A DNA stretch of 64,000 bases from a bacterium. GTDB taxonomy: Bacteria > Patescibacteriota > Patescibacteriia > JAHIZJ01. Position numbers and translations under genes: made by a program. The stretch covers positions 8,947 through 72,946 of the forward strand of contig JAUYLJ010000068.1 in the NCBI GenBank assembly GCA_030699685.1. The letters are read 5' to 3'. This document shows, piece after piece, positions 7,078 through 56,807 of this stretch (positions within the stretch are counted from its first letter, which is position 1; each line of letters starts with the position of its first letter). The notes below the pieces were generated by a model that made no database searches, was not told the DNA's origin, and worked only from the letters and a program-made list of their open reading frames with translations.

Positions 7078-7845
7078 ATGAATTCGAAAGACATCTCTCT
7101 CTTGGAGATGCTTAAAAGCGGAGTACACTTCGGCCATCAGAAGTCCCGCTGGCATCCCAAAATGAAGCAGTATATATTCACTGAACGCAATAGTGTTCAT
7201 ATTATTGATTTAGAAAAAACACGGGACAAACTGATGGAAGCCTTGGATTTCCTCAGGGAAACGGCCAGCCGCGGAGGAACGGTAGTGTTTATTGGTACGA
7301 AGAAGCAGTCCCAAAGCATCATTCTCAATCATGCTCAGGCTTCAGGCATGCCCTATATCGTCAACCGGTGGATCGGCGGATTGTTTACGAATTTTCCAGT
7401 GGTGAAAAAACTGCTGAACAAACTTTCGGAATTAAAACGCCAGCAGGAAAGCGGCGGTTGGCAGAAATATACGAAAAAAGAGCAAGTCTCTCTGAAAAAG
7501 CATTTGGACAAACTCCAAGGCCTGGTCGGCGGTCTCGAAAATCTGACGAAGATTCCCGACGCTATTTACGTGGTTGACGTGAAGAATGAAAAGACGGCAG
7601 TCGAAGAAGCCCGCCGCAAAAAAATCCCCATTGTGGCGCTGGTGGACACCAACATTGACCCTACCAAGATCACCTATCCGATACCGGCCAACGACGACGC
7701 AACAAAGTCGATAGAATACATTACCGGGAAAATAGCGGCCGCCATTATGGAAGGCAAGGATAATCCCGTACCGATTGAAGGGAAGGAAGAATCAGAAAAA
7801 ACGGTACCTGAGAAAGAAGCCGCAACCCAAAAGACAAGCTCCTAA
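7078..7845 (+). CDS. rpsB: 30S ribosomal protein uS2
   Basis: LLEMLKSGVHFGHQKSRWHPKMKQYIF is the canonical S2 N-terminus. Preceded by a TTGACT-17-TATAGT promoter and followed by tsf. Confidence 0.95.
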   Translation: MNSKDISLLEMLKSGVHFGHQKSRWHPKMKQYIFTERNSVHIIDLEKTRDKLMEALDFLRETASRGGTVVFIGTKKQSQSIILNHAQASGMPYIVNRWIGGLFTNFPVVKKLLNKLSELKRQQESGGWQKYTKKEQVSLKKHLDKLQGLVGGLENLTKIPDAIYVVDVKNEKTAVEEARRKKIPIVALVDTNIDPTKITYPIPANDDATKSIEYITGKIAAAIMEGKDNPVPIEGKEESEKTVPEKEAATQKTSS

Positions 7846-8474: not shown

Positions 8475-9320
8475 ATGGCTGACATCATCATCGTTATTAT
8501 CGCCGTTCTCTCACTGGCAGGTATCGCTTGGTTGACCTCTCGGCACTGGCAACAGCTATTGGCCTACCGCCCGGGAGCGGACAACGAACGCGTGGAACGG
8601 CGAAAACAAGATATTATCAGCCAGCGTCTTGAACGGAAGTTTACCCGGGTAAGCTTGCCGCTTGTTCGTTCTGTGCGGCCAGCGGTCTCCAAGGCGTTTG
8701 AGTGGGCGCGCCGGAGCTACCATGGGGTGCGGAATCTTGAAAATAAGTACCGTCACCTCAGCGAACAGGAGGCGGGAGAGGACCTCAAGACCGGCCCCAG
8801 TGTTCAGTACAGATTGCGCGGAGAAATTGACGAGCACATCCAAGACGAAAATTACGCCGATGCGGAGAAGAAACTCATTGAGTTGATATCACTCGACGCC
8901 GGAGATCCCGAGCATTACAGGCGATTGGGCCATTTGTACGTGGAGATGAAGGAATTTGGGCAGGCAGTTGAAACGTTTTCATACGTCCTTATTTTAGCGG
9001 CCAAGCTGAAACGTGAGCAGGAAGTGATCAGCGGTTCTGATGTCTCTGAGGAAGCGTCTGACCACATAAATCTCGGGCTGGCGTATCGTGGGTTGAGTAA
9101 ATACCCCGAGGCTTTGAAAGAAATGGAACGCGCTTGCCAACTGGAATCAAACAATCCAAGAAACCTTGATCTTTTGCTAGAGACAAGTATACTGGCACAA
9201 GATAAAATGCAAGCATGGAGCGCTTTTGATCGGCTAAAGGCGGTTAATCCGGAGAATCAAAAGCTAGCACAGTTCGAAGAGCAAATTCACGAGTTGGAAA
9301 GTAAGAGTAGGAATTTTTAA
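8475..9320 (+). CDS. hypothetical membrane-anchored protein with TPR-like helical repeats
   Basis: N-terminal TM helix. The C-terminal half has TPR-like segments (YRRLGHLYVEMKEFGQAVETF, LGLAYRGLSKYPEALKEMERACQ). Confidence 0.4.
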   Translation: MADIIIVIIAVLSLAGIAWLTSRHWQQLLAYRPGADNERVERRKQDIISQRLERKFTRVSLPLVRSVRPAVSKAFEWARRSYHGVRNLENKYRHLSEQEAGEDLKTGPSVQYRLRGEIDEHIQDENYADAEKKLIELISLDAGDPEHYRRLGHLYVEMKEFGQAVETFSYVLILAAKLKREQEVISGSDVSEEASDHINLGLAYRGLSKYPEALKEMERACQLESNNPRNLDLLLETSILAQDKMQAWSAFDRLKAVNPENQKLAQFEEQIHELESKSRNF

Positions 9321-9416
9321 CATTTATTGCCGAGCTGTGATTGACCCGCCCCTTGCCAGGTGCTGATGTAGCTTCCCCCGGCTATGCCCGGCACAAACAG
9401 TTGGCCCGCCGCTTCT

Positions 9417-9492
9417 GCCGATGTAGCTCAGCTGGTAGAGCAACTCCATGGTAAGGAGTAGGTCACCGGTTCAATTCCGGTCATCGGCTCCA
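9417..9492 (+). tRNA. tRNA-Thr (anticodon GGT)
   Basis: Acceptor GCCGATG/CATCGGC, D-arm TAGCTCAGCTGGTAGAGC, anticodon loop ATGGTAA, T-arm GGTTCAATTCC, then CCA. Confidence 0.85.
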
Positions 9493-9636
9493 GAAGCGGC
9501 GGGGTAAATACAGCGGCATTGCACCTGCGTCACACTCAGTAAAGTAATAATAATGAAGGCAAGGTGCCGCTAGGAAAAAGGTGGTGGCGAAGCTCTCAAG
9601 CGCTTATTGAAAAAGTGATATCTTCACCCTTCTGGT

Positions 9637-9722
9637 GGGTCGGTACCCAAGCGGTCAACGGGGGCAGACTGTAAATCTGCTGGCCTCGGCCTTCGTAGGT
9701 TCGAATCCTACCCGGCCCACCA
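9637..9722 (+). tRNA. tRNA-Tyr (anticodon GTA) with long variable arm
   Basis: Acceptor GGGTCGG/CCGGCCC, anticodon stem-loop GCAGA-CTGTAAA-TCTGC, long variable arm TGGCCTCGGCCTTC, T-arm GTAGGTTCGAATCCTAC, discriminator A plus CCA. Confidence 0.8.
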
Positions 9723-9990
9723 GAGGGGTGTCTCAGGCAGACTGCCACCGCCACATCATTTTCTTTAATAATAATGGAGGCGGGGTGCCGCTAGAAAGCG
9801 GCATAAATCTGTTGGCTTCGGCCTTCGCGGCTTCTTCCGTATCGATGGCGAAATCCCGCTAGCATTTCAAAAATAAATTGTATAGCGCAGGGGGATCATA
9901 CCAGGTTCACCAGTTAGAAAATGTATTTGTTGGCTCGCCAGCCGATTTTAAGTGCGAAATGAAACGATTGGGAATAAATATAGAAACGTG
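9719..9990 (+). repeat. direct repeat copy 1 (tRNA-Tyr 3' end/downstream motif plus ~200 bp), repeated at 14424..14640
   Basis: The CCAGAGGGGTGT segment is followed by GCGGCATAAATCTG(T/C)TGGC(T/C)TCGGCCTTCGCGG..CGTATCGATGGCGAAATC...CCAGG(T/C)TCACCAGTTAGAAAA...TTGGCTCGCCAGCCGATTTTAAG...AATAAATATAGAAACGTGGAC. Both copies share this, and copy 1 has a ~55 bp extra insert. Confidence 0.8.
9770..9870 (+). pseudogene. degenerate partial tRNA-Tyr-like segment (anticodon arm and variable arm remnant) inside the direct repeat
   Basis: GCGGCATAAATCTGTTGGCTTCGGCCTTCGCGG parallels GGCAGACTGTAAATCTGCTGGCCTCGGCCTTCGTAGG of the intact tRNA-Tyr. The spacer motif TAATAATAATG(A/G)AGGC(A/G)(A/G)GGTGCCGCTAG is also duplicated, at ~9555 and ~9765. 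Confidence 0.5.
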
Positions 9991-10094
9991 GACACATAAA
10001 TTCTTGGTAATTAGTTTGAAACGTAACCAAAATAGATTGTGATAAAGAGTTTGAATAAATTGTCGTTTCGATGGTTAAATCGGTATTCTACTTC

Positions 10095-10355
10095 TTTACC
10101 TTAAAAAATCCGCGCGCGCAAAAAGAGAATAGGCAATTTTTCTGCTTGGCTTCGTGCTGACGCACGGGCGGTGGAGCTTCAATAAGGACGAGGCAAAACA
10201 AAAACTATTTTTGCGGGAGAAGGTGATTTTGCTTTGCCTCAACTCTTTTTTGTTGGCAGGATTTTTTTATCCGCCGCGCAGGAGGGTGCGGGAGGAATGC
10301 GCGGCAGATTATTTGCCGTTTGCTTTACGAAAACGGCCATTTATGTCAGGGTAAT
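10095..10355 (+). promoter_or_regulatory. left arm of a ~200-250 bp inverted repeat, immediately upstream of the TruD-like gene; contains a near-palindromic core
   Basis: Reverse complement of 14140..14345 with one ~95 bp indel. The shared core is GGAGGGTGCGGGAGGAATGCGCGGCAGATTATTTGCCGTTTGCTTTACGAAAACGGC(C/T)ATTTATGTCAGGGTA, which includes CGGCAGATTATTTGCCG. Confidence 0.75.
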
Positions 10356-10358
10356 ACC

Positions 10359-11408
10359 ATGACACGCTCAAAACAGTGCAACTATAAACTTAAATGCATC
10401 AATGATGATTTTCAAGTGACGGAAGTACCCTTGATGCCTACTTTAACTTTAAAGCGACCGCGTCGCTTTACTTATATTTGGATTCAAAAAACTGGATTCA
10501 CTACTTTTGATATTATCGAGCAGATAAAAGATTTTTTTAAGTTATCGTTCAGCGATGTATCCAGTCAGGGATTAAAAGACGAGGATGCTATCACAGAGCA
10601 ACTCATCTCAATAAAGAAAATTATAAAAAATGACGACATCATAGCTTTTAATAAGAAAAGCAAGTCCAAAAAGAATTTTTGCCATATTAAGCATATCGTT
10701 GGTTATGGAAATGAGGCTGTAAAGAAAAGAATGCTCCACGGAAATTCGTTTAGAATTGTCATTAGAAATCTGGATAAAACAATCTCCAATACTTTTTTAA
10801 GTTATATCTCTAGCCAAAGACATTATTATTTTATCAACTACTATGATAATCAACGATTTGGAATGCCTAGCGGTCCATACAATACGCATTTGATTGGTAG
10901 GGCTATCGTAGAAAATAAATGGAAGGACGCCTATAAACATCTCAAAAATTCAAATAACTCTCTTCCTAAAATTACAACGAAACTTGAAAGTACCTCCGAC
11001 TTCAAGGAGATATTTCGATTGCTGAACCCAAGGAAGGTTTCTTTTTTTGTTTCTGCTTACAATAGTTTTCTTTGGAATAGTCATGCATCTTCTGTCGTCA
11101 GAAAATATACTAAAAGCAAAAAACATATTTTCGAAAATGTCGGATATCTGTACATACCAACAGCATCTTCATTTCTGTGTCCAAATATCTGCGAGGTGGA
11201 TGGCTATGAATTTCTTGCAAAGAACTTCACAATCGCACTAAAGAAAAATAGTAGAAACCTTGTTGTTGCAACTACGATATATGCTGATGATTTAGAAAAA
11301 GACGGGCTACATAAGGGAAGGTGGAAATTAACTCTTTCTTTTTTCTTGCCAACTGGTAGTTATGCCACCATGATAGTTAAGCAAATCTTCTTGAGATTAA
11401 GTAAATAG
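10359..11408 (+). CDS. truD: TruD-family tRNA pseudouridine synthase
   Basis: N-terminal KCINDDFQVTEV matches KANPEDFVVVE of TruD. Catalytic-Asp motif QGLKDEDAITEQ (compare GxKDxHAVTxQ). INYYDNQRFG (compare NYFGxQRFG). C-terminal LPTGSYATMIVKQIF (compare LPAGSFATSVVRELI). Start moved to ATG 10359 because the track start lies inside the inverted repeat. The gene is markedly AT-rich relative to its flanks. Confidence 0.8.
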   Translation: MTRSKQCNYKLKCINDDFQVTEVPLMPTLTLKRPRRFTYIWIQKTGFTTFDIIEQIKDFFKLSFSDVSSQGLKDEDAITEQLISIKKIIKNDDIIAFNKKSKSKKNFCHIKHIVGYGNEAVKKRMLHGNSFRIVIRNLDKTISNTFLSYISSQRHYYFINYYDNQRFGMPSGPYNTHLIGRAIVENKWKDAYKHLKNSNNSLPKITTKLESTSDFKEIFRLLNPRKVSFFVSAYNSFLWNSHASSVVRKYTKSKKHIFENVGYLYIPTASSFLCPNICEVDGYEFLAKNFTIALKKNSRNLVVATTIYADDLEKDGLHKGRWKLTLSFFLPTGSYATMIVKQIFLRLSK

Positions 11409-11419
11409 ATTCTTATCTT

Positions 11420-12037
11420 ATGAATAAAAATATTGAAATAGAAATACGAGGACCATTGTCGAAAGAAAAATTCAATAAACTAGAGAGTTTTCTTAACGAA
11501 AAAGGTAGGAAGTTAATTGAAAAAAACAGAGTTTTAATTGACTACTCAACTTTTTTAGATGGGGGTATTGAAGATAGAAAAAAAGATATACGCCTGCGCG
11601 TCACTAACGGTGTCCCTGAAATAATAGTGAAAATCGGACAATGGGGCGGGACAGATCAACGAAAAGAGCTTTCGGTTTTAACTAATCCAAGCAGTTTTGA
11701 CACACTCGTCGAAATTTTTGGCGAACTTGGGCTGAAAAAAGGGATGCTATGCGTACGCAGGAGTAAAATCTATGAATATCAAGGAATAGAATTTGCGCTG
11801 GTTGAGGTTCCCAATCATAGCTATTATTACGAGGCAGAAAAAATGGCACATGAAGGCGAAAATCCTGAACAAATAACAAAGGACATAACAAAGGTATGTC
11901 GAGCTTTGCAACTTGAGATATTCGACAAAAAAACATTTTTTGAATATATCCAACGACTGAACAAAGAAGCAAATGAGGTATTTGACTACACTACTTCATT
12001 TAGGCCGAATTACTTCAAAAATAGATTTGGGCTATAA
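11420..12037 (+). CDS. CYTH-domain (triphosphate tunnel metalloenzyme / class IV adenylyl cyclase-like) protein
   Basis: N-terminal EIEIRG..., alternating charged beta-strand pattern (DIRLRV, EIIVKIGQWGG, FALVEVPN), about 200 aa. AT-rich and co-directional with truD (12 bp gap). Confidence 0.5.
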   Translation: MNKNIEIEIRGPLSKEKFNKLESFLNEKGRKLIEKNRVLIDYSTFLDGGIEDRKKDIRLRVTNGVPEIIVKIGQWGGTDQRKELSVLTNPSSFDTLVEIFGELGLKKGMLCVRRSKIYEYQGIEFALVEVPNHSYYYEAEKMAHEGENPEQITKDITKVCRALQLEIFDKKTFFEYIQRLNKEANEVFDYTTSFRPNYFKNRFGL

Positions 12038-12095
12038 CTCAAAAGAAAAAACGGGTGGAGAGTTTTCTGAACTCGCCACCCGTGTGTGTTTGCCG

Positions 12096-12341
12096 TTATC
12101 CATGATGACCCCTCACAAAGACTTTCCCTCGGATTATCTTATGGGCAGGCCTGTTATGAATAATGGCGTGTCGGGCGAACTTTTGACCGCAACTGGGGCA
12201 CTTGAGAGCACCATTTGTGCAATCCGACATGATCATATCGGCGTAACACTTTATGAGCGTCCCCCCGCCCTCTTTTTTGTAGCGGTAAAGCAGACCTGTG
12301 CATTTAGCGCAATGCACGGCAATCGTGTATGTTTTTCCCAC
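12096..12341 (-). CDS. small zinc-ribbon protein, likely last gene of the minus-strand operon
   Basis: CAKCTG...CPSCGQ (CxxC-x-CxxC). GTG start preceded by AAGGAG 7 nt upstream, and 12 bp after the PreA-like stop. Confidence 0.45.
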   Translation of the reverse strand: MGKTYTIAVHCAKCTGLLYRYKKEGGGTLIKCYADMIMSDCTNGALKCPSCGQKFARHAIIHNRPAHKIIRGKVFVRGHHG

Positions 12342-12353
12342 GTTCTTCTCCTT

Positions 12354-13499
12354 TCAGAAAGATGCCTTTATGGCATCAAATTTGGGAGGACATACTCCGA
12401 CACACGCGTTGCAAGAAATGCAGTTGTCGGCGATTACAGCGAGCGGCTTCCTGTTAGCACGACGAAGCATCGTCAGGGCATCAAAAGCGCAGGATTGAAC
12501 GCAGATTCCGCAACCAGTGCACTTCTCTTCGATTACGACCGGACATGGTGACGAAAAACGATGTTCGCGTGTCTTTTCAAGTGTGAGTCCGATCAGATCC
12601 TCAATCGAGTCGTACTGAGGATTCTCCGCGAGAAACCTCCCCAGTCCTGCCGTTATGCGCTTGAAGACAACCGGACCCTTCAGTGCTGGCGCGGTGTAAA
12701 GTTGCACTGCTCTTGCGCCTGCCATCAACATCTGGACAACGTCGTCAGCCGTGAAGATTCCACCACATCCGACGATCGGAATGGTAAGATTCTGCGAAAG
12801 TTGATGTACACACCACAGAGCAATCGGGAAAATCGCTTTTCCAGACACTCCGCCGCCGCCACCCTTAATACCGAGCTTGGGTTTGGCGGTTTTGGTGTCG
12901 ATCAACATTCCGGGACCGATACTATTCGTGCAGACGATGGCGTCAGCGCCTAACTCTTGGGCGCGCTGAGCCATAGAGAGTAGCAGGTTCGAGTATGACA
13001 ACTTGATCCAGATGGGCGTCTTTGTAACGCCCCGCACCTTCTTCATTAGTTGTTCCAGATGAAGCTCGTCAACATTCAAGTTGCCGTGCAGTGCGCCTGA
13101 GTGCGAGCAGGAAATGTTGATCTCGTAGGCATCAACATCAAGCTCGTCAAAGGTCTGGATCAAATAGCAACAACTCTCGAGGTCGCGACCAGAAAGAGAA
13201 ACGATGATCGGACAGCCAGCGTCTTGCACATGGCGCACTCCACTGTCTCGCCACTCTGTCCACGGTTTCTCGTTTCCCCATTCGCAGTTAAGCATGTTGT
13301 CTTGTCCGAAAACCGCGTAACGCGGGACGGTAATTCTCGAACGCTCCGGCGGAACGCGTTGCTTGAGCGAACGGGTGACTATCCCCGAACAGCCGTATGG
13401 TTGAGCTCTCATGAAGAACTCTGGCGTTTCGGTAATGTATCCTGATGCCAACAAGAGCGGTGTCTGGAGACTTACACTTCCTACTTGCGTCCTGAGCAT
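12354..13499 (-). CDS. dihydropyrimidine dehydrogenase subunit PreA-like / DHODH-family flavoprotein with C-terminal 2x[4Fe-4S] ferredoxin domain
   Basis: TIM-barrel DHOD/DPD motifs: active-site EINISCSHSG (compare ELNLSCPHG of DPD/PreA), GIKGGGGGVSGKAIFPIAL, VGCGGIFTADDVVQMLMAGARAVQLYTA. C-terminal CTGCGICVQSC...CISCNACVGVCP. No PreT partner is visible. Confidence 0.7.
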   Translation of the reverse strand: MLRTQVGSVSLQTPLLLASGYITETPEFFMRAQPYGCSGIVTRSLKQRVPPERSRITVPRYAVFGQDNMLNCEWGNEKPWTEWRDSGVRHVQDAGCPIIVSLSGRDLESCCYLIQTFDELDVDAYEINISCSHSGALHGNLNVDELHLEQLMKKVRGVTKTPIWIKLSYSNLLLSMAQRAQELGADAIVCTNSIGPGMLIDTKTAKPKLGIKGGGGGVSGKAIFPIALWCVHQLSQNLTIPIVGCGGIFTADDVVQMLMAGARAVQLYTAPALKGPVVFKRITAGLGRFLAENPQYDSIEDLIGLTLEKTREHRFSSPCPVVIEEKCTGCGICVQSCAFDALTMLRRANRKPLAVIADNCISCNACVGVCPPKFDAIKASF

Positions 13500-13501
13500 G
13501 G

Positions 13502-14071
13502 CTATCCTCCTTTCTGTAGATGTGGCGCTAAAATCGCGAGCACTTCCTTAAACACCATGCGTTCTGTCGCTTCGGAGATTTCAACCACCGAGGTAAACAG
13601 TGATCTTTGCCGCAGGATTGTCCTGATCTCGTCATCGGCTGCCGCAACTCTTTTTTCTATCTCTGCAGAGCTTTCTGTCTTTCGTATGATAGCAAGCCTT
13701 TTGTGAAGCAGAGGTAGTTCAGAGGTAACGAAACCGATAGTGATGACTGCAGGATTGATTCTGAGCGCTTCCGAAACATTGTTCGGGTGCAACTCAGTCA
13801 ATCTGATATCTGTGGTTGGAAACAAATCCTTCCCCCTAAGGCCATAGCGATGGCCAAAGAGGTCTTGAACCAACACCAATTCACCAATATCAGCCCTCCG
13901 ATTGAACTCAGAAACTGAAACAGGGATTCTGTTTCCTCTACCCTGTTCGTCTGGTCGCAGGGGGCGGGTAGTAAACCATGTCAGTTCCTGAATGTATGGG
14001 TGAAGCTGCAATAGCCGTTCCTTGACGTATCCCTTACCGATTCCGGAAGGGCCGCTGAAAGCGATTATCAT
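13502..14071 (-). CDS. divergent guanylate-kinase-like P-loop nucleoside monophosphate kinase
   Basis: P-loop IAFSGPSGIGKGY and FTTRPLRPDEQGRGNRIPVSVSEF resemble Gmk (GPSGVGKGT; TTRxPRxGExxGxDYxF). The conserved GMP-contacting Tyr context is altered. Stop abuts the PreA-like start (operon). Confidence 0.6.
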   Translation of the reverse strand: MIIAFSGPSGIGKGYVKERLLQLHPYIQELTWFTTRPLRPDEQGRGNRIPVSVSEFNRRADIGELVLVQDLFGHRYGLRGKDLFPTTDIRLTELHPNNVSEALRINPAVITIGFVTSELPLLHKRLAIIRKTESSAEIEKRVAAADDEIRTILRQRSLFTSVVEISEATERMVFKEVLAILAPHLQKGG

Positions 14072-14139
14072 CGTACCCCTCCTTTCGTTCGTTTGTGAAA
14101 GAACTTTTCCTAATTCTTAGGAGCATCCTAAGAATTATA

Positions 14140-14345
14140 TTACCCTGACATAAATAGCCGTTTTCGTAAAGCAAACGGCAAATAATCTGCCGCGCATTCC
14201 TCCCGCACCCTCCTGATTGAAGCTCCGCCGCCAGCGTGAAGCCGAGCAGAAAAATTGCCTATTCTTTTTTTGTTTTTGCGCGCGCCGATTTTATCCTTAA
14301 AGGAAAGACAATTTTTCTGCGAGGCAGTGTCATTTGGCAGCACGG
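14140..14345 (-). promoter_or_regulatory. right arm of the inverted repeat, immediately upstream of the Gmk-like/PreA-like operon
   Basis: Reverse complement of the 10095..10355 core, including the CGGCAGATTATTTGCCG near-palindrome. The 66-67 aa ORFs the track places in both arms share an identical 23-aa C-terminus simply because of the repeat. Confidence 0.75.
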
Positions 14346-14423
14346 TAGCGGGGCTGAGTGAATTGGATTTTTTCAGAAATTTCTGCTAAAATGGTTTCTA
14401 ACGTGGTTGCAAGGCCACACCAG

Positions 14424-14640
14424 AGGGGTGTTCACTCACTCTAACGCGGCATAAATCTGCTGGCCTCGGCCTTCGCGGGTTCTTCCGTATCGATGGCGAA
14501 ATCTCGTTAACATTTCGAACATAAGTTGTATAGTGCAGGGGAATCCTACCAGGCTCACCAGTTAGAAAAAATGTCTTTGTTGGCTCGCCAGCCGATTTTA
14601 AGCGCACAACGAAACCATTGGCAATAAATATAGAAACGTG
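14424..14640 (+). repeat. direct repeat copy 2 (att-like; begins with CACACCAGAGGGGTGT resembling the tRNA-Tyr 3' end plus downstream)
   Basis: See copy 1. About 85-90% identity by eye over ~200 bp. Confidence 0.8.
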
Positions 14641-14685
14641 GACGCACCATTCTTAAATAATTAATTAAACACTTAATAAAACATC

Positions 14686-16071
14686 ATGCGAAAAAGACCA
14701 ACATGTATTTCTTTGTTAGTCACACTTTTTAGCATCTGTATATTTTATGTTCTTACTGGACCGGCTCAGGCGAGAGTAGCGTTAACTGAAGGCGAGTTTG
14801 TGGTTCTTGGGGACGACCTTTCACTAGGAGACGTTTATAACCAAATGTTGTTTCAGGATATGGTTTTTGAAATTGATGATCTGGGTAAGGCAAAAGGAAC
14901 AGCCAACGTATCTTTTACCGACTTAGATTTGAAGGGCGCGCTTCGTACCGGAACCCTTACTCTTAATTTAGAGGGGAATTATGATACCAAAGAAAACAGT
15001 TTGAGTGGAACATTCTTAGTCAAATTTACAAGTTCAATGGTTGACGAACCACCCCCACCGCTCCTCTCGTATTATGGCAATAATGAATATACTTTTGACG
15101 GTACTATTTCCGGTGGTTGGTCATCGAAAGAAAGTGCCTTTGAAATCTTTTTCAATGGGACAGCGCATTCGGTTGGTAAAACCTGGAACGGTAATGGTAA
15201 AGAGGAAGAACAGGATACAACAACAGAATGGCACAATAAAGCTGTATTTAGGGAGGACTTCTGCGCTAGCTTACTTGCCCGGGCAGAAAGTAAACCAAAG
15301 TGGAAATTAATTCAAACCGCGCAAGCGAAAGATTCAGGCGCGCGTTTCGCGGCATTTTCAGGCGAGGTTTTAATTGCTCCTCAAGACGATCTTGATGACG
15401 AACGAGCAGCTGAAGACGATATGGTCCTAGAAGAAGGCGATATAGTTACAACTGGTGGAGATAGTTGCGCGATGATCAGCTACGCCGATGGGAGCACGTT
15501 TATTATGAAAGCGCGTTCCAAGGTAATCTTAGCGGCTGCTCCGGAAAGACAAAGCCAATTAGAATTAGTCGCGGGAAATATCTTGGTCAATCTGAAACAT
15601 ATCTACGAAACCGGCCAATTGGAAGTAACTATGAATGATGCGATTGCCGGCACCAAAGGCACGACTTTTGTTGCTTCTGAGGACGGAACCAATTCTACCC
15701 TCAAAGTTATTGAAGGGTTAATGTATTTTCGATCGCTAGCGACCGGTCAAGAAATCGATGTTGGATCCGGCGAGATGGTTTCAGCTGATTCCGATGGAAT
15801 GACTGAAAAAACCGCTTTTGACACTGAGACCGAATCCAGCTCTTGGGAAAAAATTCAAGGAAATTTAACGCTTTTCAACACAAAGTCTGTTGCTAGCGAC
15901 GAGTCGCCGGTAGAACCATCTTCCCAAGATGACACCTCAGAGCCTCAAGAAGAAATATCTTCTGAAGCGGAAGAACCAAAATCTAAGGGAACATTATTTG
16001 CAATACTGTCATCTCTTGTCGTGCTAGTTGTACTAGGATTTTTGGGAATAAAGTTTGCTAGAAGGAAATGA
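14686..16071 (+). CDS. hypothetical secreted protein with N-terminal signal peptide, acidic linkers and C-terminal TM anchor (possible FecR-like beta domain)
   Basis: Hydrophobic N-terminus (LLVTLFSICIFYVLTGPAQA), central DGSTFIMKARSKVILAA...GTKGTTFVASEDG reminiscent of FecR-type domains, and C-terminal LFAILSSLVVLVVLGFLGIKFARRK. Confidence 0.4.
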   Translation: MRKRPTCISLLVTLFSICIFYVLTGPAQARVALTEGEFVVLGDDLSLGDVYNQMLFQDMVFEIDDLGKAKGTANVSFTDLDLKGALRTGTLTLNLEGNYDTKENSLSGTFLVKFTSSMVDEPPPPLLSYYGNNEYTFDGTISGGWSSKESAFEIFFNGTAHSVGKTWNGNGKEEEQDTTTEWHNKAVFREDFCASLLARAESKPKWKLIQTAQAKDSGARFAAFSGEVLIAPQDDLDDERAAEDDMVLEEGDIVTTGGDSCAMISYADGSTFIMKARSKVILAAAPERQSQLELVAGNILVNLKHIYETGQLEVTMNDAIAGTKGTTFVASEDGTNSTLKVIEGLMYFRSLATGQEIDVGSGEMVSADSDGMTEKTAFDTETESSSWEKIQGNLTLFNTKSVASDESPVEPSSQDDTSEPQEEISSEAEEPKSKGTLFAILSSLVVLVVLGFLGIKFARRK

Positions 16072-16246
16072 AGTAGTTGTTGCCGAAAAAATAATCTATA
16101 CAGGAATTTAACGAATAGAGCCGGGCTTGTATGTAGACAGGAAATAGAAGCAAAGGAATGTATTAACTAACATTGCGTATATGGCGTGCTTCGCCGCTGG
16201 CGGGTCCGGCTAACACTTCGAAGATGAAATAGAAAAGAGCGGGAGA

Positions 16247-16300
16247 ATCCTACTCCACCCACCAGGTAGTGTTGAAATGACAGACTGCCACCGCCACAAT
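16247..16300 (+). repeat. third partial copy of the tRNA-Tyr T-arm/3' end plus downstream CAGACTGCCACCGCCACA motif
   Basis: GAATCCTACTCCACCCACCAGG aligns with GAATCCTACCCGGCCCACCAGAGG of tRNA-Tyr. The 18-nt CAGACTGCCACCGCCACA is identical to 9739..9756. Confidence 0.65.
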
Positions 16301-16330
16301 CAGTGTAGTTATAACAAAGAAGGCTTCACA
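16298..16330. terminator. stem-loop with flanking T/A runs (bidirectional terminator-like)
   Basis: AAGGCTTCACATGGTGGAAGCCTTTT: GGCTTC/GAAGCC stem followed by TTTT, at the 3' end of the 16326..16859 minus-strand gene. Confidence 0.4.
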
Positions 16331-16859
16331 TGGTGGAAGCCTTTTGGGGCGGGATGAGCACTTCAACGATGTCGAGGGGCATACGCTCGGTGCCATAGTT
16401 CACCCTGACAACGAAAGGAGTGTCCTCGTGACTCACCCCTAGGATACCGATGCCGCTTCCACGGTTGGTGATGACGACGGACTCCGGAGGAAGGCTGGAC
16501 AGGATGCCGGTAAATGCTCTTCGGCGGTCTTCGAGACTGGTGCTGAGAATAGCGGGGATCATGGTGCCGTCGGCGAAGAGAATGCAAGGCCCGTCGTCGG
16601 TGGTGACAAGCCTCTCTGACGTGCCCAAGGCGGAACTGTAGCGGTCGACGCGCAGTCCCAAGGCCCAAGCTGTTTCACGTTCAGCTCGGCCAGTAGCGCA
16701 GCAGACAACCGGCGGACAATGGGGGAGTAAGCTTCGTAGACTGGCTACTATGCTTTCCGCGCCAGGGGAAAGTCCCGGGTCCGGTCCGCTAGCGAGGAGA
16801 CCGGAAACCACCACGTAGATGATCGATTCTTCGTACATAGACCTTCTCCTTCCGGTCAC
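16326..16859 (-). CDS. hypothetical protein, strongly GC-rich relative to surroundings
   Basis: 177-aa ORF with high GC and Ala/Arg/Gly/Pro bias. No motif recognised. Sits next to the third att-like fragment. Confidence 0.35.
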   Translation of the reverse strand: MTGRRRSMYEESIIYVVVSGLLASGPDPGLSPGAESIVASLRSLLPHCPPVVCCATGRAERETAWALGLRVDRYSSALGTSERLVTTDDGPCILFADGTMIPAILSTSLEDRRRAFTGILSSLPPESVVITNRGSGIGILGVSHEDTPFVVRVNYGTERMPLDIVEVLIPPQKASTM

Positions 16860-16983
16860 AAAGGGTACCCGGATGTGTTTGTGGGCCAGAGGACGATCTC
16901 AAAAGAAACAACATAACAATGGACAAGGCAAGGTGACACGACGTGAATCGATGTCGAAAAACTGTGCTGACAGTATCAGGTAC

Positions 16984-17409
16984 TTATTGTTTCGTCAATA
17001 TCGAAAAGAATGTTTCGAGATGGGCAAACGCTTCGTCAAGAGTCTGGTAGGATCGGGACTGAATGTTTGAATTTCCAAGCACCATCGGACTGGCGTGAGC
17101 GGATGTTCCTTCTCTATAGAGCGCCATGATTGGGATGTTTCGGCTTTCCGCCAAGCCGATCTCGTAACCGACTCCGATTGAAGGCGTGGAAATATCGGCT
17201 ACCAGCGCGTCGGCCTGCCGGACTAAACCAGAATCGTAATCGTAAATCTCTTGGTGTGTAAACTCGACTCTTCCTTTGTCCGTGATGGCCGGATCGCCCA
17301 CGAAATCGCTGAGAACCTGTCCGTAACTTCGCAAGTGCGTAATCAAGGCGCTGTAGATAGTGACATCCTGGCGGCCGCTTCGAATTGATCCGGCGAAATA
17401 TATTTTCAC
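16984..17409 (-). CDS. DNPH1/Rcl-like 2'-deoxynucleoside 5'-phosphate N-hydrolase (nucleoside 2-deoxyribosyltransferase family)
   Basis: VKIYFAGSIRSGRQDVTIYSALITHLRSYGQVLSDFV matches LYFCGSIRGGREDRTLYERIVSRLRRFGTVLTEHV of DNPH1. ADALVADISTPSIGVGYEIGLA matches ADVVVAEVTQPSLGVGYELGRA. Start set at GTG ~17409 because the track's upstream ATG overlaps the preceding gene by 120 bp. Confidence 0.8.
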   Translation of the reverse strand: MKIYFAGSIRSGRQDVTIYSALITHLRSYGQVLSDFVGDPAITDKGRVEFTHQEIYDYDSGLVRQADALVADISTPSIGVGYEIGLAESRNIPIMALYREGTSAHASPMVLGNSNIQSRSYQTLDEAFAHLETFFSILTKQ

Positions 17410-18077
17410 TATATCCGTATGCCAAAACTTTGGAATATCCCCAGCACTCCGTGGAGAATGCCAAAAACAATGCTCAGCCAGGCCATATAGCGGTGGTAGT
17501 AGCTCATCTTGACGATGGAGTTGTCCCATTTATCCGGTCCGGGTATCTTTCCTTTCCAGGGAACGGAACGGACGCACCAGGGCATGACGTAACAAGACAT
17601 GAAGTTCAAAATGAAGACCAGCGCGAACACATAGCCGGTCCAGGCCGTGAGGTTTTTGTCAAAAAGCAGGATGTTGGAGCGACCCGCGGATCCCGTCTTT
17701 TCTGTCCCAGGTTCACCCAGCCGTCCGACTACCTCGAAGCCGGCAAAGACTTCCGTGCCGTGCGGTGCTTCGGAAAGCGCCTGGGTCAGGTCTACCCCGG
17801 CCGCGTGGCCGAAGTGACTGCCTTCCTCAAACATTGCACTGTCGCTCACATCGTAAATCAATCCTTGGTAGGCGTAGTAGGCCGGCCGGCCATCCTGTCC
17901 GTCAAAGGCGCTCAGTTCTTCGTTGCTGAATGCTCGCAGGCTCTCTGTATCGATGGCTGATTCTTCATCAACCGCCGCGGCAATCACCGCGCTTGAGAGA
18001 AATACCGTGGCCATGAAAAGGTAGCCTACAAGAATCGCTTTTTTTGATGGTGGTAATTCCTTCCAGTATATTTTCAT
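17409..18077 (-). CDS. membrane protein with cytochrome b5-like haem/steroid-binding domain and C-terminal TM helices
   Basis: N-terminal signal-anchor, then FDGQDGRPAYYAYQGLIYDVSDSAMFEEGSHFGHAAGVDLTQAL (cyt-b5-like fold pattern), then three hydrophobic helices. Confidence 0.5.
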   Translation of the reverse strand: MKIYWKELPPSKKAILVGYLFMATVFLSSAVIAAAVDEESAIDTESLRAFSNEELSAFDGQDGRPAYYAYQGLIYDVSDSAMFEEGSHFGHAAGVDLTQALSEAPHGTEVFAGFEVVGRLGEPGTEKTGSAGRSNILLFDKNLTAWTGYVFALVFILNFMSCYVMPWCVRSVPWKGKIPGPDKWDNSIVKMSYYHRYMAWLSIVFGILHGVLGIFQSFGIRI

Positions 18078-18080
18078 GGT

Positions 18081-18932
18081 TTATTCCTTTGGGCCAAAGG
18101 GCTGAAGATAGACAACGGTCTCGTCTTCGGGCAGATCAAGCTCGTCCTTGACAGCGTCAGCGTCGTATCCTCCCATGACCACAGTGCCCAGGCCTAATGA
18201 CTCGGCTTCCAGGTAAAGGTTTTGGCCAATATGGCCGCTTTCCTGGTGGACGACTTTTAAACCCGAATCGCCAGGGAAAGAAGCCTGGACTTTGGCATAG
18301 ATGGCTCCATAGACCGCGACGGCTGGAGCGACGCGCAATTGAGCTTGTTGTTCTTCGCCTGTGAGGAGATCCACTTCGCTCTTAAGAAGCCGAATAGAGT
18401 GCGTCTCGGGAAGATAGTGGTACAATCCGGGGTCAATTCCTTCAACATCTCTGACTAATACGTAAAAATTAATCGGGTAAAGACTGCGAGCTGAAGGCGA
18501 AGTACGGCCGCCGCTTTCGGGATCGGTCACGCCCTGGCCGGCCCAGAGCATTTGGCCAAGCTGGGCTTGGGTAAGAGATGCATCCCCATACGCTCGGGCG
18601 CTGCGCCTCTGAGAGAGGGCTTGCTCAACCGACACGCTGCCCAAGCTTTGAGGAGAGGGGAGCGCGATTTCTTCACCAATGTAATTTTTCTCAATTGGAA
18701 CATATTCAGAACTCTCTTCCATAGCGGCTGAGTTTGTGTCGTTTTCTTCCTGAGTAGCCGGGGATTTCTGAAATTCATACGCGTAGAGTATCCAGCCGAC
18801 CGCAGCGATAATGAGTACGATAATCACGGTCATCCCTTGCGGACCGGTAAACATTTTGGGCGGTGGCGGAGGCCCGACTTGAGGGTTTGCGTCAGTCATG
18901 GGTACGGTATTTAGCGTATTAGTTTGAACCAA
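18081..18932 (-). CDS. membrane-anchored SagB-type dehydrogenase / nitroreductase-superfamily flavoprotein
   Basis: N-terminal Pro-rich segment and TM helix. Nitroreductase-fold motifs LSQRRSARAY...QLGQMLWAGQGVT, GGRTSPSARSLYPINFYVLV (PSaGgLYP-type), QESGHIGQNLYLEAESLGLGTVVMGGYD. Confidence 0.65.
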   Translation of the reverse strand: MVQTNTLNTVPMTDANPQVGPPPPPKMFTGPQGMTVIIVLIIAAVGWILYAYEFQKSPATQEENDTNSAAMEESSEYVPIEKNYIGEEIALPSPQSLGSVSVEQALSQRRSARAYGDASLTQAQLGQMLWAGQGVTDPESGGRTSPSARSLYPINFYVLVRDVEGIDPGLYHYLPETHSIRLLKSEVDLLTGEEQQAQLRVAPAVAVYGAIYAKVQASFPGDSGLKVVHQESGHIGQNLYLEAESLGLGTVVMGGYDADAVKDELDLPEDETVVYLQPFGPKE

Positions 18933-18955
18933 TTATAAACGAATATGCGATATGT

Positions 18956-19723
18956 TTAAAGCGATTGCTTGTCAGGTCCCCTCTGCTTCACCAAGCGGAG
19001 TTTGATCAATAAGGCCAACCGTAAGATGAATACCAGAAGCACAAAGGCTGTTAACAATAATGAAAAGGGGGGCAAAACGCTTGGCCGCTCAGTCAGCCAA
19101 ATCTCCCAGACCTCGTATCTTTTGATACCGTAGTGCAAAAGGGCTAAAAAATAGGCCAGATAACCCAGGCGGAGCAGCGGTCTCCAGCGCTGACCGTATC
19201 TTTTCATGCCGGCGGTGTTGGAGATTGAAGCCATGAATAGCAAAATAAGTAAGGCCGTCGCCCCAAAAAGAAAGGCGTACGCGTTATTTACCTGAAAACC
19301 AAACACCTCCCAGACATAGAGAGCGTCGTAGCGGCTTTGATCATTGGGAATGACGAAATACAGGAAGTAGGCGATCAATCCGTGCGCCAGAGCGTAAGCG
19401 AAACCGGTTATGCCTAGGTATTTGCGATAAATGATTTTCGTGTCGAAAAAATCCCAGAAGTAGCAGATTCCGCTGAGCGCAAAAGATAATCCGATCAGTA
19501 TTATGGCCGTGTCGGCTAACGCGGCATTAGCGTGGTTGATGGAATAATCCACGCCCCTGCCCAGCTGGTAGATGATCACGCCGGAGTAGGCGGCCGCACT
19601 CAGTAAAAATGAATTTCGCCATAAGTTCCAGCGCGCGGTGGGGCCTCTTTTTTTCAGTGCCTGGTCATACTTTTGTTGGGCTGTGGAATGACTGGATTCT
19701 GGAGCGGGGCTTTGTTGATCCAT
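18956..19723 (-). CDS. polytopic membrane protein, ferric-reductase-like / MsrQ-like haem-binding transmembrane domain (tentative)
   Basis: About 6 TM helices with conserved His in helices (YALAHGLIAYFLYF, LALLHYGIKRYE), similar to PF01794-type b-haem TM domains. Tentative. Confidence 0.4.
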   Translation of the reverse strand: MDQQSPAPESSHSTAQQKYDQALKKRGPTARWNLWRNSFLLSAAAYSGVIIYQLGRGVDYSINHANAALADTAIILIGLSFALSGICYFWDFFDTKIIYRKYLGITGFAYALAHGLIAYFLYFVIPNDQSRYDALYVWEVFGFQVNNAYAFLFGATALLILLFMASISNTAGMKRYGQRWRPLLRLGYLAYFLALLHYGIKRYEVWEIWLTERPSVLPPFSLLLTAFVLLVFILRLALLIKLRLVKQRGPDKQSL

Positions 19724-30625: not shown

Positions 30626-30868
30626 GTGTATTTCCTCTACATCCTCCAATGTTTCGACAACACTCTCTACACCGGCGTGGCTGTCGATGTAGCCAAGCGG
30701 GTGGCGGCGCATAATCATTCTCCCCGTGGCGCAAAATATACCCGCTCACGCCGGCCCGTGACGCTGGTCTATATGAAAAAGTTTCGTTCAAGATCAAAGG
30801 CGTTGAAAGAAGAATACCGGATCAAGCAATTGACGAGGTGGGAAAAATTTGCTCTCATTGGAAAATAA
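30626..30868 (+). CDS. GIY-YIG nuclease-domain protein (YhbQ/UPF0213-like)
   Basis: MYFLYILQCFDNTLYTGVAVDVAKRVAAHN...YRIKQL: GIY..YIG, Arg and Glu in canonical order. Confidence 0.75.
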   Translation: MYFLYILQCFDNTLYTGVAVDVAKRVAAHNHSPRGAKYTRSRRPVTLVYMKKFRSRSKALKEEYRIKQLTRWEKFALIGK

Positions 30869-56282: not shown

Positions 56283-56807
56283 ATGTTTCATAAAAACTCA
56301 CAAAAACGCTTGTCTCTCGAGAACGCGGTGTATTTTGTGACTACAAAAACTAAGTGGAATTATCCATATCTTGCGAACATATGTTTAGCAAATTTATGCG
56401 AGGCAAAAATATGGCTAGCTCAAGAACAGCTTCATTTTCAGTTGTTCGGGTATGTAATTATTCCTGACCATCTCCATATATTGTTTCGACCTCTCAAAAC
56501 ATCAACTGTATCCGATAGTATGCATTATATTAAACGCAACACGTCCCGAAGTGCGAATATCTTGCTCCATACCTCCGCAGGCGAGGATGATCATCCTCGC
56601 CTGCGGGGCGGAAGTCACAGTCAAACAAAGAAATTCTTTTGGCAATCGTCATTTCATGACCACATCATCCGTGACCAAAAAGACTTCAACCGACACGTTG
56701 AATACCTGCGCTATAACCCGATCAAACACGGGTTGTTGTTAAGTGAAAACAATAAATATCCCTATATGTACATCAACTACGAGCTGATACAAAAACTCTT
56801 TGGATAA
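56283..56807 (+). mobile_element. IS200/IS605-family Y1 (HUH) transposase-like gene, REP-associated tyrosine transposase (RAYT)-like
   Basis: HUH motif IIPDHLHILF, WQSSFHDHIIRDQKDFNRHVEYLRYNPIKHGL, catalytic Tyr region (KYPYMY). Single copy. Confidence 0.65.

Follow-up and report, generated by a model that had tools for sequence, protein, structure and literature searches.

The segment described here lies directly 3' of a tRNA-Tyr gene in a 64,000-nt stretch of DNA from an uncultured, ultra-small member of the Patescibacteriota (lineage JAHIZJ01; GCA_030699685.1, contig JAUYLJ010000068.1, positions 8,947-72,946 of the forward strand). This whole stretch is referred to as the window, and positions are counted from its first nucleotide. 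It belongs with the familiar tRNA-linked genomic islands, as a recombinase-less, accreted variant, and is not an element of a new kind. Two tRNA genes, and no others, were identified in the 64 kb using ARAGORN and Rfam: tRNA-Thr(GGT) at 9417-9492 (+) and a functional type II tRNA-Tyr(GTA) with an encoded CCA end at 9637-9722 (+). The tRNA-Tyr gene is intact (55.5 bits in the Rfam search), with anticodon G34 at 9671 and the boundary between T-loop nucleotides C56 and G57 at 9702/9703. The island begins immediately 3' of it, at 9723. A search of 9300-16500 against Rfam at gathering thresholds, and also at E<=5, matched the two tRNAs and nothing else.

The island comprises two modules. Module 1 is a five-gene cassette with two convergent operons. 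One encodes a TruD-like pseudouridine synthase (10359-11408, +; 349 aa, GLKD motif, GC 34%; Pfam PF01142, E 7e-42) and a CYTH-domain protein with an N-terminal EIEIR motif (11420-12037, +; 205 aa, GC 36%). Facing it are genes for a guanylate-kinase-like (gmk-like) P-loop kinase (13502-14071, -; 189 aa), a DHODH/PreA-like flavoprotein with a C-terminal 2x[4Fe-4S] domain (12354-13499, -; 381 aa) and a Zn-ribbon protein with four Cys, p81 (12096-12341, -; 81 aa). The last is 77-91% conserved within a tight clade of cassettes, defined by PreA-like proteins that are >=77% identical, and 53-72% conserved in four divergent cassettes. The single gene of module 2 encodes a FecR-domain membrane protein (14686-16071, +; 461 aa). 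Judging from the families to which the proteins belong, the cassette looks like an RNA or pyrimidine-nucleotide modifying module, made up of a pseudouridine synthase, a triphosphate-tunnel enzyme, a P-loop kinase, a DHODH/DPD-type Fe-S flavin reductase and a Zn-ribbon partner. None of the seven proteins that were compared with the PADLOC models for anti-phage defence had a match.

A sequence-only reading of the locus had proposed an integrated island, with three attachment-site-like (att-like) copies of the tRNA 3' end and no integrase between them, and had taken compositional breaks as support for foreign origin. The breaks are clear. Relative to the window, GC content is low in the genes for the TruD-like (z -4.0) and CYTH (z -3.6) proteins, which have a tetranucleotide z-score of 9.2; the FecR gene is atypical in GC at third codon positions (GC3; z -2.6), and the open reading frame (ORF) at 16326-16859 is GC-rich (z +2.5). 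Foreign origin is further borne out by relatives that share the flanking genes and have neither the cassette nor the FecR gene, and by the horizontal spread of the module 1 cargo (see below). The absence of an integrase extends well beyond the repeats, as domains of the Phage_integrase, Resolvase and Recombinase families were found in no ORF tested across the 64 kb. The only transposase-like gene encodes a REP-associated tyrosine transposase (RAYT; 56283-56807, +; NCBIfam NF047646, E 2e-31; GC 0.40, a low outlier) and is 42 kb away. We saw no dispersed repetitive extragenic palindrome (REP) family in the window.

Repeats derived in part from tRNA-Tyr flank each module. The longest is a 254-nt direct repeat, at 9795-10048 (+) and 14443-14697 (+), with a spacing of 4648 nt and 80-89% identity between copies. 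Its significance is high, with a BLAST E value of 1e-57 and a local-alignment z-score of 121. The longest exact words common to the copies are 25 nt, or 24 nt by BLAST, which found no more copies elsewhere in the window. Just ahead of copy 2, the sequence GGCCACACCAGAGGGGTGT (14413-14434, +) matches 9714-9735, the 3' end of tRNA-Tyr with 13 nt of flank (1/500 shuffles). Because this piece copies the end of the tRNA gene, the repeated block starts inside the last 10 nt of tRNA-Tyr. In its extended form it thus spans 9712-10048 (U1) and 14413-14697 (U2), with a 56-nt indel between the two.

A third remnant occupies 16190-16298 (+). It includes a copy of the non-tRNA segment X described below (X'', 16190-16244; 0/500 shuffles), a tRNA 3' end (16245-16265) that is 86% identical to the T-loop/acceptor 3' end at 9703-9723, a 15-nt spacer, and the exact 18-mer CAGACTGCCACCGCCACA (16281-16298; CAGACTG followed by CCACCGCCACA). 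The 18-mer is the same as 9738-9755 and represents the beginning of a further unit. No shuffle in 500 scored as high as the whole 58-nt match of this copy (score 49). Copies of the tRNA 3' part are therefore present at 9893-9913, 14541-14561 and 16245-16265, in addition to the short piece at 14413-14434, and all are above chance. The recurrence of the tRNA-Tyr 3' end and of a block of ~200 bp, as reported in the sequence-only reading, is real, far above chance and larger than was described. Two details require revision. The motif downstream of the tRNA was said to recur at both later copies; it does so at the third, as the exact 18-mer, but not at the second (~14424-14440), where only CACCAGAGGGGTGT is present. 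The ~200-bp block was placed 3' of the tRNA copy; it is repeated, but itself contains tRNA-Tyr sequence (9804-9834/14452-14482 and 9893-9913/14541-14561).

The organization of these repeats is that of a pseudo-tRNA gene. Pseudo-tRNA-Tyr unit 1 (9738-9913, +) begins with CAGACTG (9738-9744), which is tRNA nt 28-34, ends at anticodon G34 and also forms the first 7 nt of the 18-mer. There follow a 59-nt hairpin insert, ins1 (9745-9803), tRNA nt 35 to T-loop C56 (9804-9834), the 58-nt segment X (9835-9892), and the remainder of the tRNA from G57 to ACCA (9893-9913). Thus, the tRNA sequence is interrupted twice, once in the anticodon (nt 34/35) and once in the T-loop (C56/G57). Beyond the unit, copy 1 of the direct repeat continues with segment Y (9914-10048, ~135 nt), which includes a small terminator-like hairpin. 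Copy 2, with pseudo-tRNA-Tyr unit 2, has tRNA nt 35-56 at 14452-14482, X' at 14483-14540, the tRNA 3' end at 14541-14561 and Y' at 14562-14697; its part at 14452-14482 is 24/24 identical to the resident tRNA-Tyr. All three junctions between X and the tRNA 3' end start at one T-loop position and share X. The acceptor stem occurs as three alleles: the gene has CCGGCCC, the long repeats have CAGG(C/T)TC and the third copy has TCCACCC. In the third copy, 16245-16265 is 21/21 identical to the 3' end of the functional tRNA-Tyr of a relative (L179). Given three different alleles, the copies are not one recent duplication of the resident gene.

A conserved structured RNA, named in the sequence-only reading as a finding that would overturn it, is half supported: the blocks are conserved across relatives, but show neither fold stability nor covariation. 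Fold energies are not in excess of those of shuffled sequences (z -0.5 to +0.8), the copies have no predicted structure in common, and compensatory change between the window and L179 affects 2/26 predicted pairs only. We rejected a structured RNA in the direct repeat on the grounds that fold z-scores are ~0 and no structure is shared. A group I intron or homing insertion in the anticodon loop was also rejected. Such an intron would have a core of at least ~200 nt, a terminal U in its 5' exon and a terminal G of its own; ins1 is 36-92 nt in the genomes compared, comes after G34 and has A as its last nucleotide, and there is no Rfam intron match. An archaeal-type intron or split tRNA would require a longer insert and different boundary nucleotides at 34/35, and the 5' third of the tRNA is absent. 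A REP/RAYT origin of the GC-rich hairpin inserts was set aside as well, since the RAYT gene is present but a dispersed REP family is not.

Relatives were found via the TPR protein adjoining tRNA-Thr. Four Patescibacteria assemblies share the upstream gene order FtsW-L25-DUF3048x2-PrmC-PrfA-L31-S2-Tsf-(PSP1)-TPR. One of these, L179, is also syntenic on the right (VIT1, GT2, Wzy_C, DUF4012 and MreB, with MreB at 94%), and has only an acyltransferase gene between tRNA-Tyr and VIT1. In L177, tRNA-Tyr is followed by genes for an asparaginase, BipA, a type I restriction system and a ThsB-like protein. The cassette and FecR gene are absent between tRNA-Tyr and the flank genes in both genomes, and the content there is wholly different. 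Five assemblies of the lineage break at the tRNA-Thr/tRNA-Tyr locus (L001, L176, L178, L180 and the start of L002). Given the shared flanks, the differing content after tRNA-Tyr and the assemblies that end there, the locus is a variable hotspot. One of these assemblies is from the window's own sequencing run; the breaks fall at the tRNA locus or inside the right inverted repeat described below, and L180 stops exactly at the tRNA-Tyr anticodon. An EF-Ts-anchored scan of JGI metagenomes detected no close relative (the best EF-Ts match has 56% identity), and showed that tRNA-Thr/Tyr/Thr/Trp clusters are frequent after tsf.

The unit itself is present where the island is not. Directly after the functional tRNA-Tyr, L177 and L179 have CAGACTG, then CCACCGCC...GGCGGGGTG CCGC(C/T)...GCGG CA, then TAAATCTG and the tRNA 3' part, which is the architecture of unit 1, and in L179 a 58-nt X is inserted at the same T-loop position. 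Thus, integration of the present modules did not create the unit. Sequence comparison indicates that it is an older, lineage-wide feature, either conserved for a reason or repeatedly re-introduced. Other interrupted copies occur in the same genomes. In L179, a complete tRNA-Tyr 5' half is also present and runs at G34 into the same hairpin insert; L180 has a 5' half with a D-loop hairpin; and the tRNA-Thr pseudo-copies of L177 and L179 are both interrupted by a hairpin in the anticodon loop, that of L179 by another in the T-loop. Pseudo-copies with a GC-rich hairpin in the D-, anticodon or T-loop are located at 10775-10858 in L179, 11125-11209 in L177 and 11055-11125 in L180. Loop-interrupted tRNA-Thr and tRNA-Tyr pseudo-genes beside the functional genes look like a systematic, unexplained pattern. 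L179 also encodes an 80-aa GIY-YIG ORF (11085-11327) between tRNA-Thr and tRNA-Tyr, 18 nt upstream of the functional tRNA-Tyr. A weak homolog (30% identity over 67 aa, E 5e-5) is located at ~30629-30826 in the window, far from the tRNA locus.

An inverted repeat of 155-254 bp, overlooked in the sequence-only reading along with the X segment that precedes the third copy, brackets the coding part of the cassette. Its left arm (10103-10356, +) has a terminator-like edge consisting of a GC palindrome and an A-run, a leader and a sigma70-like promoter-like segment that stops 2 nt before the TruD start codon. The right arm (14138-14292, -) has the same promoter and leader with a 95-nt internal deletion, and is followed by a 67-nt 5' untranslated region with a perfect hairpin and a Shine-Dalgarno sequence ahead of the gmk-like gene. 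The last 78 nt of the two arms are 99% identical. Small ORFs within the arms (10154-10354 and 14140-14343) were judged to be non-coding, as only the 25 C-terminal codons, which fall within the identical DNA, are shared and the 95-nt indel shifts the rest.

The leader element, of ~180 nt, occurs upstream of both cassette operons (10140-10324, + and 14170-14342, -). It includes a hairpin with a conserved loop and a covarying stem (P2), a GC-rich, terminator-like hairpin with a T-run (P4), and a conserved -35/-10-like segment; the 5' strand of P4 can pair alternatively with an upstream GGCGG (GGCGG/CCGCC). The promoter-like sequence TTTAC(G/A)-N16-17-TA..(G)T is conserved between the leader element and the start codons. 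The same leader precedes the TruD-like gene in six other genomes (L011, L012, L013, L014, L016 and L027), and an inverted copy is upstream of the kinase-like gene wherever the contig extends that far. A model of the leader has 8 matches in 6 genomes, including L027 (107 bits), which was not used in building the model. Covariation is 0.240, compared with 0.105 for shuffles (0/500) and <=0.141 for slid controls, with double changes at 9 pairs, in a set of only 7 distinct sequences. The deletion in the right arm, the kinase-side copy of the window, takes out P2 and the 5' strand of P4; the kinase-side copy of L011 has lost the hairpins too, and both retain the promoter-like part. We therefore read the inverted repeat primarily as a duplicated promoter and regulatory region.

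The leader is a candidate riboswitch, attenuator or small RNA (sRNA), although its structured part may instead be a DNA-level site. Like terminator riboswitches and attenuators, it has a conserved-loop hairpin with a covarying stem, a GC-rich hairpin with a U-run and an alternative GGCGG pairing, and it is upstream of operons that resemble those of nucleotide metabolism. Unlike them, it has a -35/-10-like segment downstream of the terminator-like hairpin, so that the leader may lie outside the mRNA; moreover, the gmk-side copies of the window and L011 are without hairpins, one loop is flipped in L014, and no Rfam family was matched in 9300-16500 at E<=5. We know of no ligand for the element. 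Exact scans of IMG/VR with two repeat motifs and one leader motif returned no match. The flipped loop of L014 is in the terminator-like hairpin (7263-7306 compared with 11178-11220), which keeps its stem but has its loop reverse-complemented between the inverted leader copies. The pattern points to template switching, or to inversion at a quasi-palindrome, and to the stem as the only part that matters.

Using the PreA-like protein to search species-representative genomes, we identified the five genes in identical order in ~20 species. The hosts include Paceibacterota, Uhrbacteria, Kerfeldbacteria and Saccharibacteria, and a 4.1-kb contig is binned as an Iainarchaeum archaeon. In the tight clade, GC3 is 0.13-0.35 for the TruD/CYTH genes and 0.22-0.65 for the PreA/p81/kinase genes, and the two halves remain distinct although host GC varies over 0.30-0.53; in more distant Saccharibacteria cassettes GC3 is homogeneous and host-like. 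As a measure of horizontal transfer we compared the third positions of conserved 4-fold-type codons. Identity between the window and L004 is 69% for PreA and 74% for the kinase, and between the window and L011 it is 59% and 76%, respectively. For S2, PrfA, FtsW, DUF4012 and MreB it is 25-40%, and effectively saturated, between the window and its closest syntenic relatives. The synonymous sites of the cassette are far less diverged than those of housekeeping genes, and thus the cassette copies are much younger than the host lineages. On this measure, the cassette has spread horizontally among Patescibacteria.

The genomic settings of the cassette vary. In L011 (Uhrbacteria), it is downstream of TPR-tRNA-Thr-tRNA-Tyr with one gene between, and there are no tRNA-derived repeats. 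Other tRNA genes are <=1.6 kb from the cassette in L021 (Trp), L028 (Ile) and L025 (two Val); given about one tRNA per 20 kb in such genomes, the enrichment is modest. Flanking direct repeats were found at 3/14 loci tested, and conserved termini were not found in cassette copies without the leader. The repeat in L004 (Candidatus Paceibacter) is 95 nt long with 63 identical, and consists of the end of a small ORF and its terminator. That in L022, of 51 nt, consists of the promoter and first codons of a neighbouring gene. The small ORFs flanking the cassette in L004 (9775-9930 and 13862-13991) end alike (...LFGKLKI*) and have the same terminator, all within a perfect direct repeat of 63 nt, beyond which GC falls to 25-28%. 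The putatively archaeal contig (L016; JAPLVQ010000042.1, 4135 nt, binned as Candidatus Iainarchaeum, DPANN) has the cassette only, with perfect 141-nt inverted repeats at its ends. Either this reflects cross-domain transfer or the contig is mis-binned; its shape suggests assembly collapse at the inverted repeats. We found no relevant literature on the cassette or on islands in the candidate phyla radiation. Contexts of FecR homologs have no X or Y sequences and no common neighbourhood.

As we tentatively read it, the island grew by recombinational accretion in tandem at a tRNA-derived repeat that already existed, is by now fixed and immobile, and resembles the cis-mobilizable elements (CIMEs). 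The resident substrate would be the lineage-specific pseudo-gene units, which carry tRNA-Tyr sequence from nt 28 on with two inserts. Incoming DNA with a related unit copy would recombine with a resident copy, either site-specifically, with the enzyme supplied in trans, or as a circular molecule by Campbell-type homologous recombination, and each event would leave one diverged unit copy on either side of the insert. Two acquisitions may be envisaged, one of the 4.4-kb five-gene cassette (10049-14412) and one of the FecR-domain gene (14686-16071). The cassette is an insulated expression unit, with each operon behind the same promoter and structured leader in inverted orientation. In favour of this reading are the register of the repeats, the X junctions common to all three copies, the different acceptor alleles, the hotspot nature of the locus, the horizontal spread and unusual composition of the cassette, and the lack of recombinase domains in the ORFs tested across the window.

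Several observations weigh against this interpretation. The unit pre-exists in island-less relatives, and its copies alone thus cannot prove integration. The closest relatives are 54-70% identical in housekeeping proteins, which precludes a true empty-site comparison. The long repeats (254-337 bp), which are 11-20% diverged and differ by a 56-nt indel, are atypical for att cores; the block consisting of tRNA nt 35-56, X and the tRNA 3' end is neither a canonical attL nor a canonical attR; and the expected left-end sequence Y does not come after the first unit, the one directly behind the functional tRNA. A cognate recombinase, an autonomous relative or a second genome with X or Y at a module boundary was not found in 180 loci or by exact motif scans of IMG/VR. 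In most other genomes the cassette is without an adjoining tRNA and without flanking direct repeats, and the two repeats found beyond the window (in L004 and L022) are of local promoter or gene-end sequence, not tRNA. The earlier idea of a tRNA-integration footprint consequently needs to be narrowed. The DNA is foreign, the site is variable and the junctions are attR-like, but these are not simple att duplications made by the present modules: that claim is contradicted by the unit downstream of tRNA-Tyr in L177 and L179, and by the divergence and indel of the repeats.

Comparison with known elements leads to a similar view. Of the features of tRNA-linked islands, an intact adjoining tRNA gene, a distal repeat of the tRNA 3' end, foreign composition and absence from L177 and L179 are all seen here; the repeat was not made by the integration, and there is no recombinase beside an att-like site. 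CIMEs are integrase-less, att-flanked modules that accrete in tandem at tRNA genes (Pavlovic et al. 2004; PMC5704250). As in CIMEs, tandem modules with foreign cargo lie 3' of a tRNA, are bounded by copies of its 3' end and have no integration or transfer genes. However, the repeats here are long and diverged and of putative att status, consist of a pseudo-tRNA with two loop inserts that is also present in island-less relatives, and have no known related autonomous element or integrase; any remaining recombination competence of the sites is putative. In the tandem ssrA islands of Dehalococcoides, the attR signature is a conserved motif upstream of the repeat, with insertion in the mid T-loop (PMC3146451). 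The window resembles these in its tandem arrangement downstream of a tRNA-like gene, in modules without integration genes, in strain variability of the region, and in a junction that consists of a conserved non-tRNA segment and then tRNA from the mid T-loop. The Dehalococcoides islands differ in that many independent examples are known and that they carry a 20-bp repeat and a conserved serine-recombinase module, DsiB (PMC3146451), whereas the window has no recombinase. Here, moreover, a tRNA fragment (nt 35-56) precedes the conserved motif and cargo is found between units in one genome only. At the tyrT locus of E. coli, 178-bp tandem repeats, each ending in tRNA-Tyr 3'-terminal nucleotides, probably arose by unequal recombination. 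The order of tRNA-Tyr and then repeated units that hold the tRNA 3' end is the same in both, but the E. coli units are directly tandem, without intervening genes or loop inserts, and kilobases of foreign genes separate the units in the window.

The tyrT case has a counterpart among the alternatives, namely amplification in situ, by which the tRNA-Tyr units are old tandem repeats that arose by unequal crossing-over or gene conversion, not att sites, and the cargo entered by unrelated illegitimate recombination. This is possible, if on the unlikely side. The units occur both upstream and downstream of tRNA-Tyr in island-less relatives, with analogous units after tRNA-Thr; the third copy is followed by a spacer and CAGACTG plus CCACCGCC, as is the functional gene, which suggests a periodic array; and the perfect match of the tRNA part of copy 2 to the resident gene suggests gene conversion. 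However, the 254-bp repeat holds ~135 nt of Y that is not recognizable in relatives and brackets exactly the acquired cassette, the three copies have different acceptor alleles, one equal to the functional tRNA of another genome, and amplification offers no reason for foreign genes to have landed between units twice. Alternatively, the repeated block may be functional, as a tRNA-like RNA or as a promoter or 5' region duplicated for the TruD operon and the FecR gene. The block is recognizable at a distance at which housekeeping proteins are 54-70% identical and neutral DNA should be saturated, X is kept at 58 nt, copy 2 has a promoter-like site (14507-14534; 10/12 match) and ends at the FecR start codon, and the flanking repeats in L004 and L022 are likewise duplications of promoters or gene ends. 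We consider such a role improbable, as the fold and covariation results above speak against a conserved RNA, the downstream genes differ in every genome, the block has no Rfam match, and with its 5' third missing it cannot be a tRNA. Repair scars are a further alternative. A tRNA-linked GIY-YIG endonuclease has a precedent in SegB of the T4 tRNA cluster, and such an enzyme linked to tRNA-Tyr could have cut the resident tRNA genes repeatedly, with double-strand-break repair bringing in both new alleles and foreign DNA and leaving behind partial tRNA copies that contain insertions. In L179 the GIY-YIG ORF adjoins tRNA-Tyr and is preceded by the tRNA-Tyr 5' half joined at nt 34 to the hairpin insert, and breaks in the pseudo-copies fall at set places in the loops (in the D-loop of L180, at nt 34/35 and at nt 56/57). 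Yet no such gene is in or near the island of the window, where the weak homolog at ~30.6 kb is the only candidate, there is no intron core in an ins1 of 36-92 nt, and the inserts, as hairpins that are conserved and constant in length (both the window and L179 have an X of 58 nt), are not random repair junk, which makes this origin decidedly unlikely.

The cassette might instead be a mobile element in its own right. With the tRNA repeats as incidental, a non-autonomous transposon with ~250-bp terminal inverted repeats, moved in trans by a transposase such as the RAYT at 56283-56807, would account for the inverted repeats that bound the cassette in the window, L011, L014 and L016. It is nevertheless a very improbable explanation: the inverted repeats hold promoters and end 2 nt before the TruD start, and promoter duplication therefore explains them; no target-site duplication was found at their outer edges in the window or L014; no transposase of its own was found; at least ten other cassette copies are without the inverted repeats; and no dispersed REP family was seen in the window. 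It is doubtful, too, that the five genes constitute a new type of mobile unit, a recombinase-free, self-insulated cassette with terminator-like outer edges and two convergent operons, each behind a copy of one promoter and of a hitherto undescribed riboswitch-like or sRNA element. On this view it spreads across Patescibacteria classes, with a 4.1-kb copy binned even with a DPANN archaeon. We give little credence to the idea that it settles through recombination with 50-340 bp of local sequence, or through duplication of such a stretch, and it seems quite unlikely that the pseudo-tRNA units are its landing pads, or products of a cassette-moving enzyme. Finally, the arrangement could stem from a chimeric or mis-joined contig of a metagenome-assembled genome. 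The contigs that Logan assembled independently from the same run (SRR13727534) break at 9444, in the right inverted repeat (~14157) and within the cassette, and the 78-nt, 99% identical inverted repeat leaves cassette orientation formally ambiguous. However, the direct repeats are diverged, with exact words of <=25 nt, and cannot collapse in a normal de Bruijn assembly; Logan contigs match the window wherever they overlap it; and L011 independently has the cassette by tRNA-Thr/tRNA-Tyr. An artefact is thus most unlikely.

Very little is known of gene exchange in the reduced genomes of Patescibacteria, and this locus is a concrete and well-delimited example. The transfer of a five-gene cassette of RNA and nucleotide enzymes between classes is recent enough to have left its synonymous sites unsaturated. 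The cassette carries its own duplicated promoter and leader, and sits in a tRNA hotspot with a peculiar family of tRNA pseudo-genes that have a hairpin insert in each loop. Identification of the insertion mechanism would explain gene flow in this large radiation. The leader, linked as it is to an uncharacterized enzyme set, offers a testable candidate for a new regulatory RNA. Were the segment only a decayed island, it would represent ordinary tRNA-linked accretion in an unusual phylum. The widely exchanged cassette with its candidate regulatory RNA, and the family of loop-interrupted tRNA pseudo-genes, are in our view worth follow-up.

Past the third repeat, the window has a run of minus-strand genes (16326-19723) that is missing from the syntenic relative L179. 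The run encodes the GC-rich ORF of unknown function, a nucleoside 2-deoxyribosyltransferase-like protein, a cytochrome b5-like protein, a nitroreductase and a ferric-reductase-like protein. Given its absence from L179, the variable region may reach ~19.7 kb. In a distant relative from the EF-Ts scan (L122), a 3.9-kb gene-bearing segment (11767-15658) separates tRNA-Tyr from tRNA-Thr/tRNA-Trp, its usual downstream neighbours, and the tRNA-Thr 3' end is duplicated 87 nt downstream.

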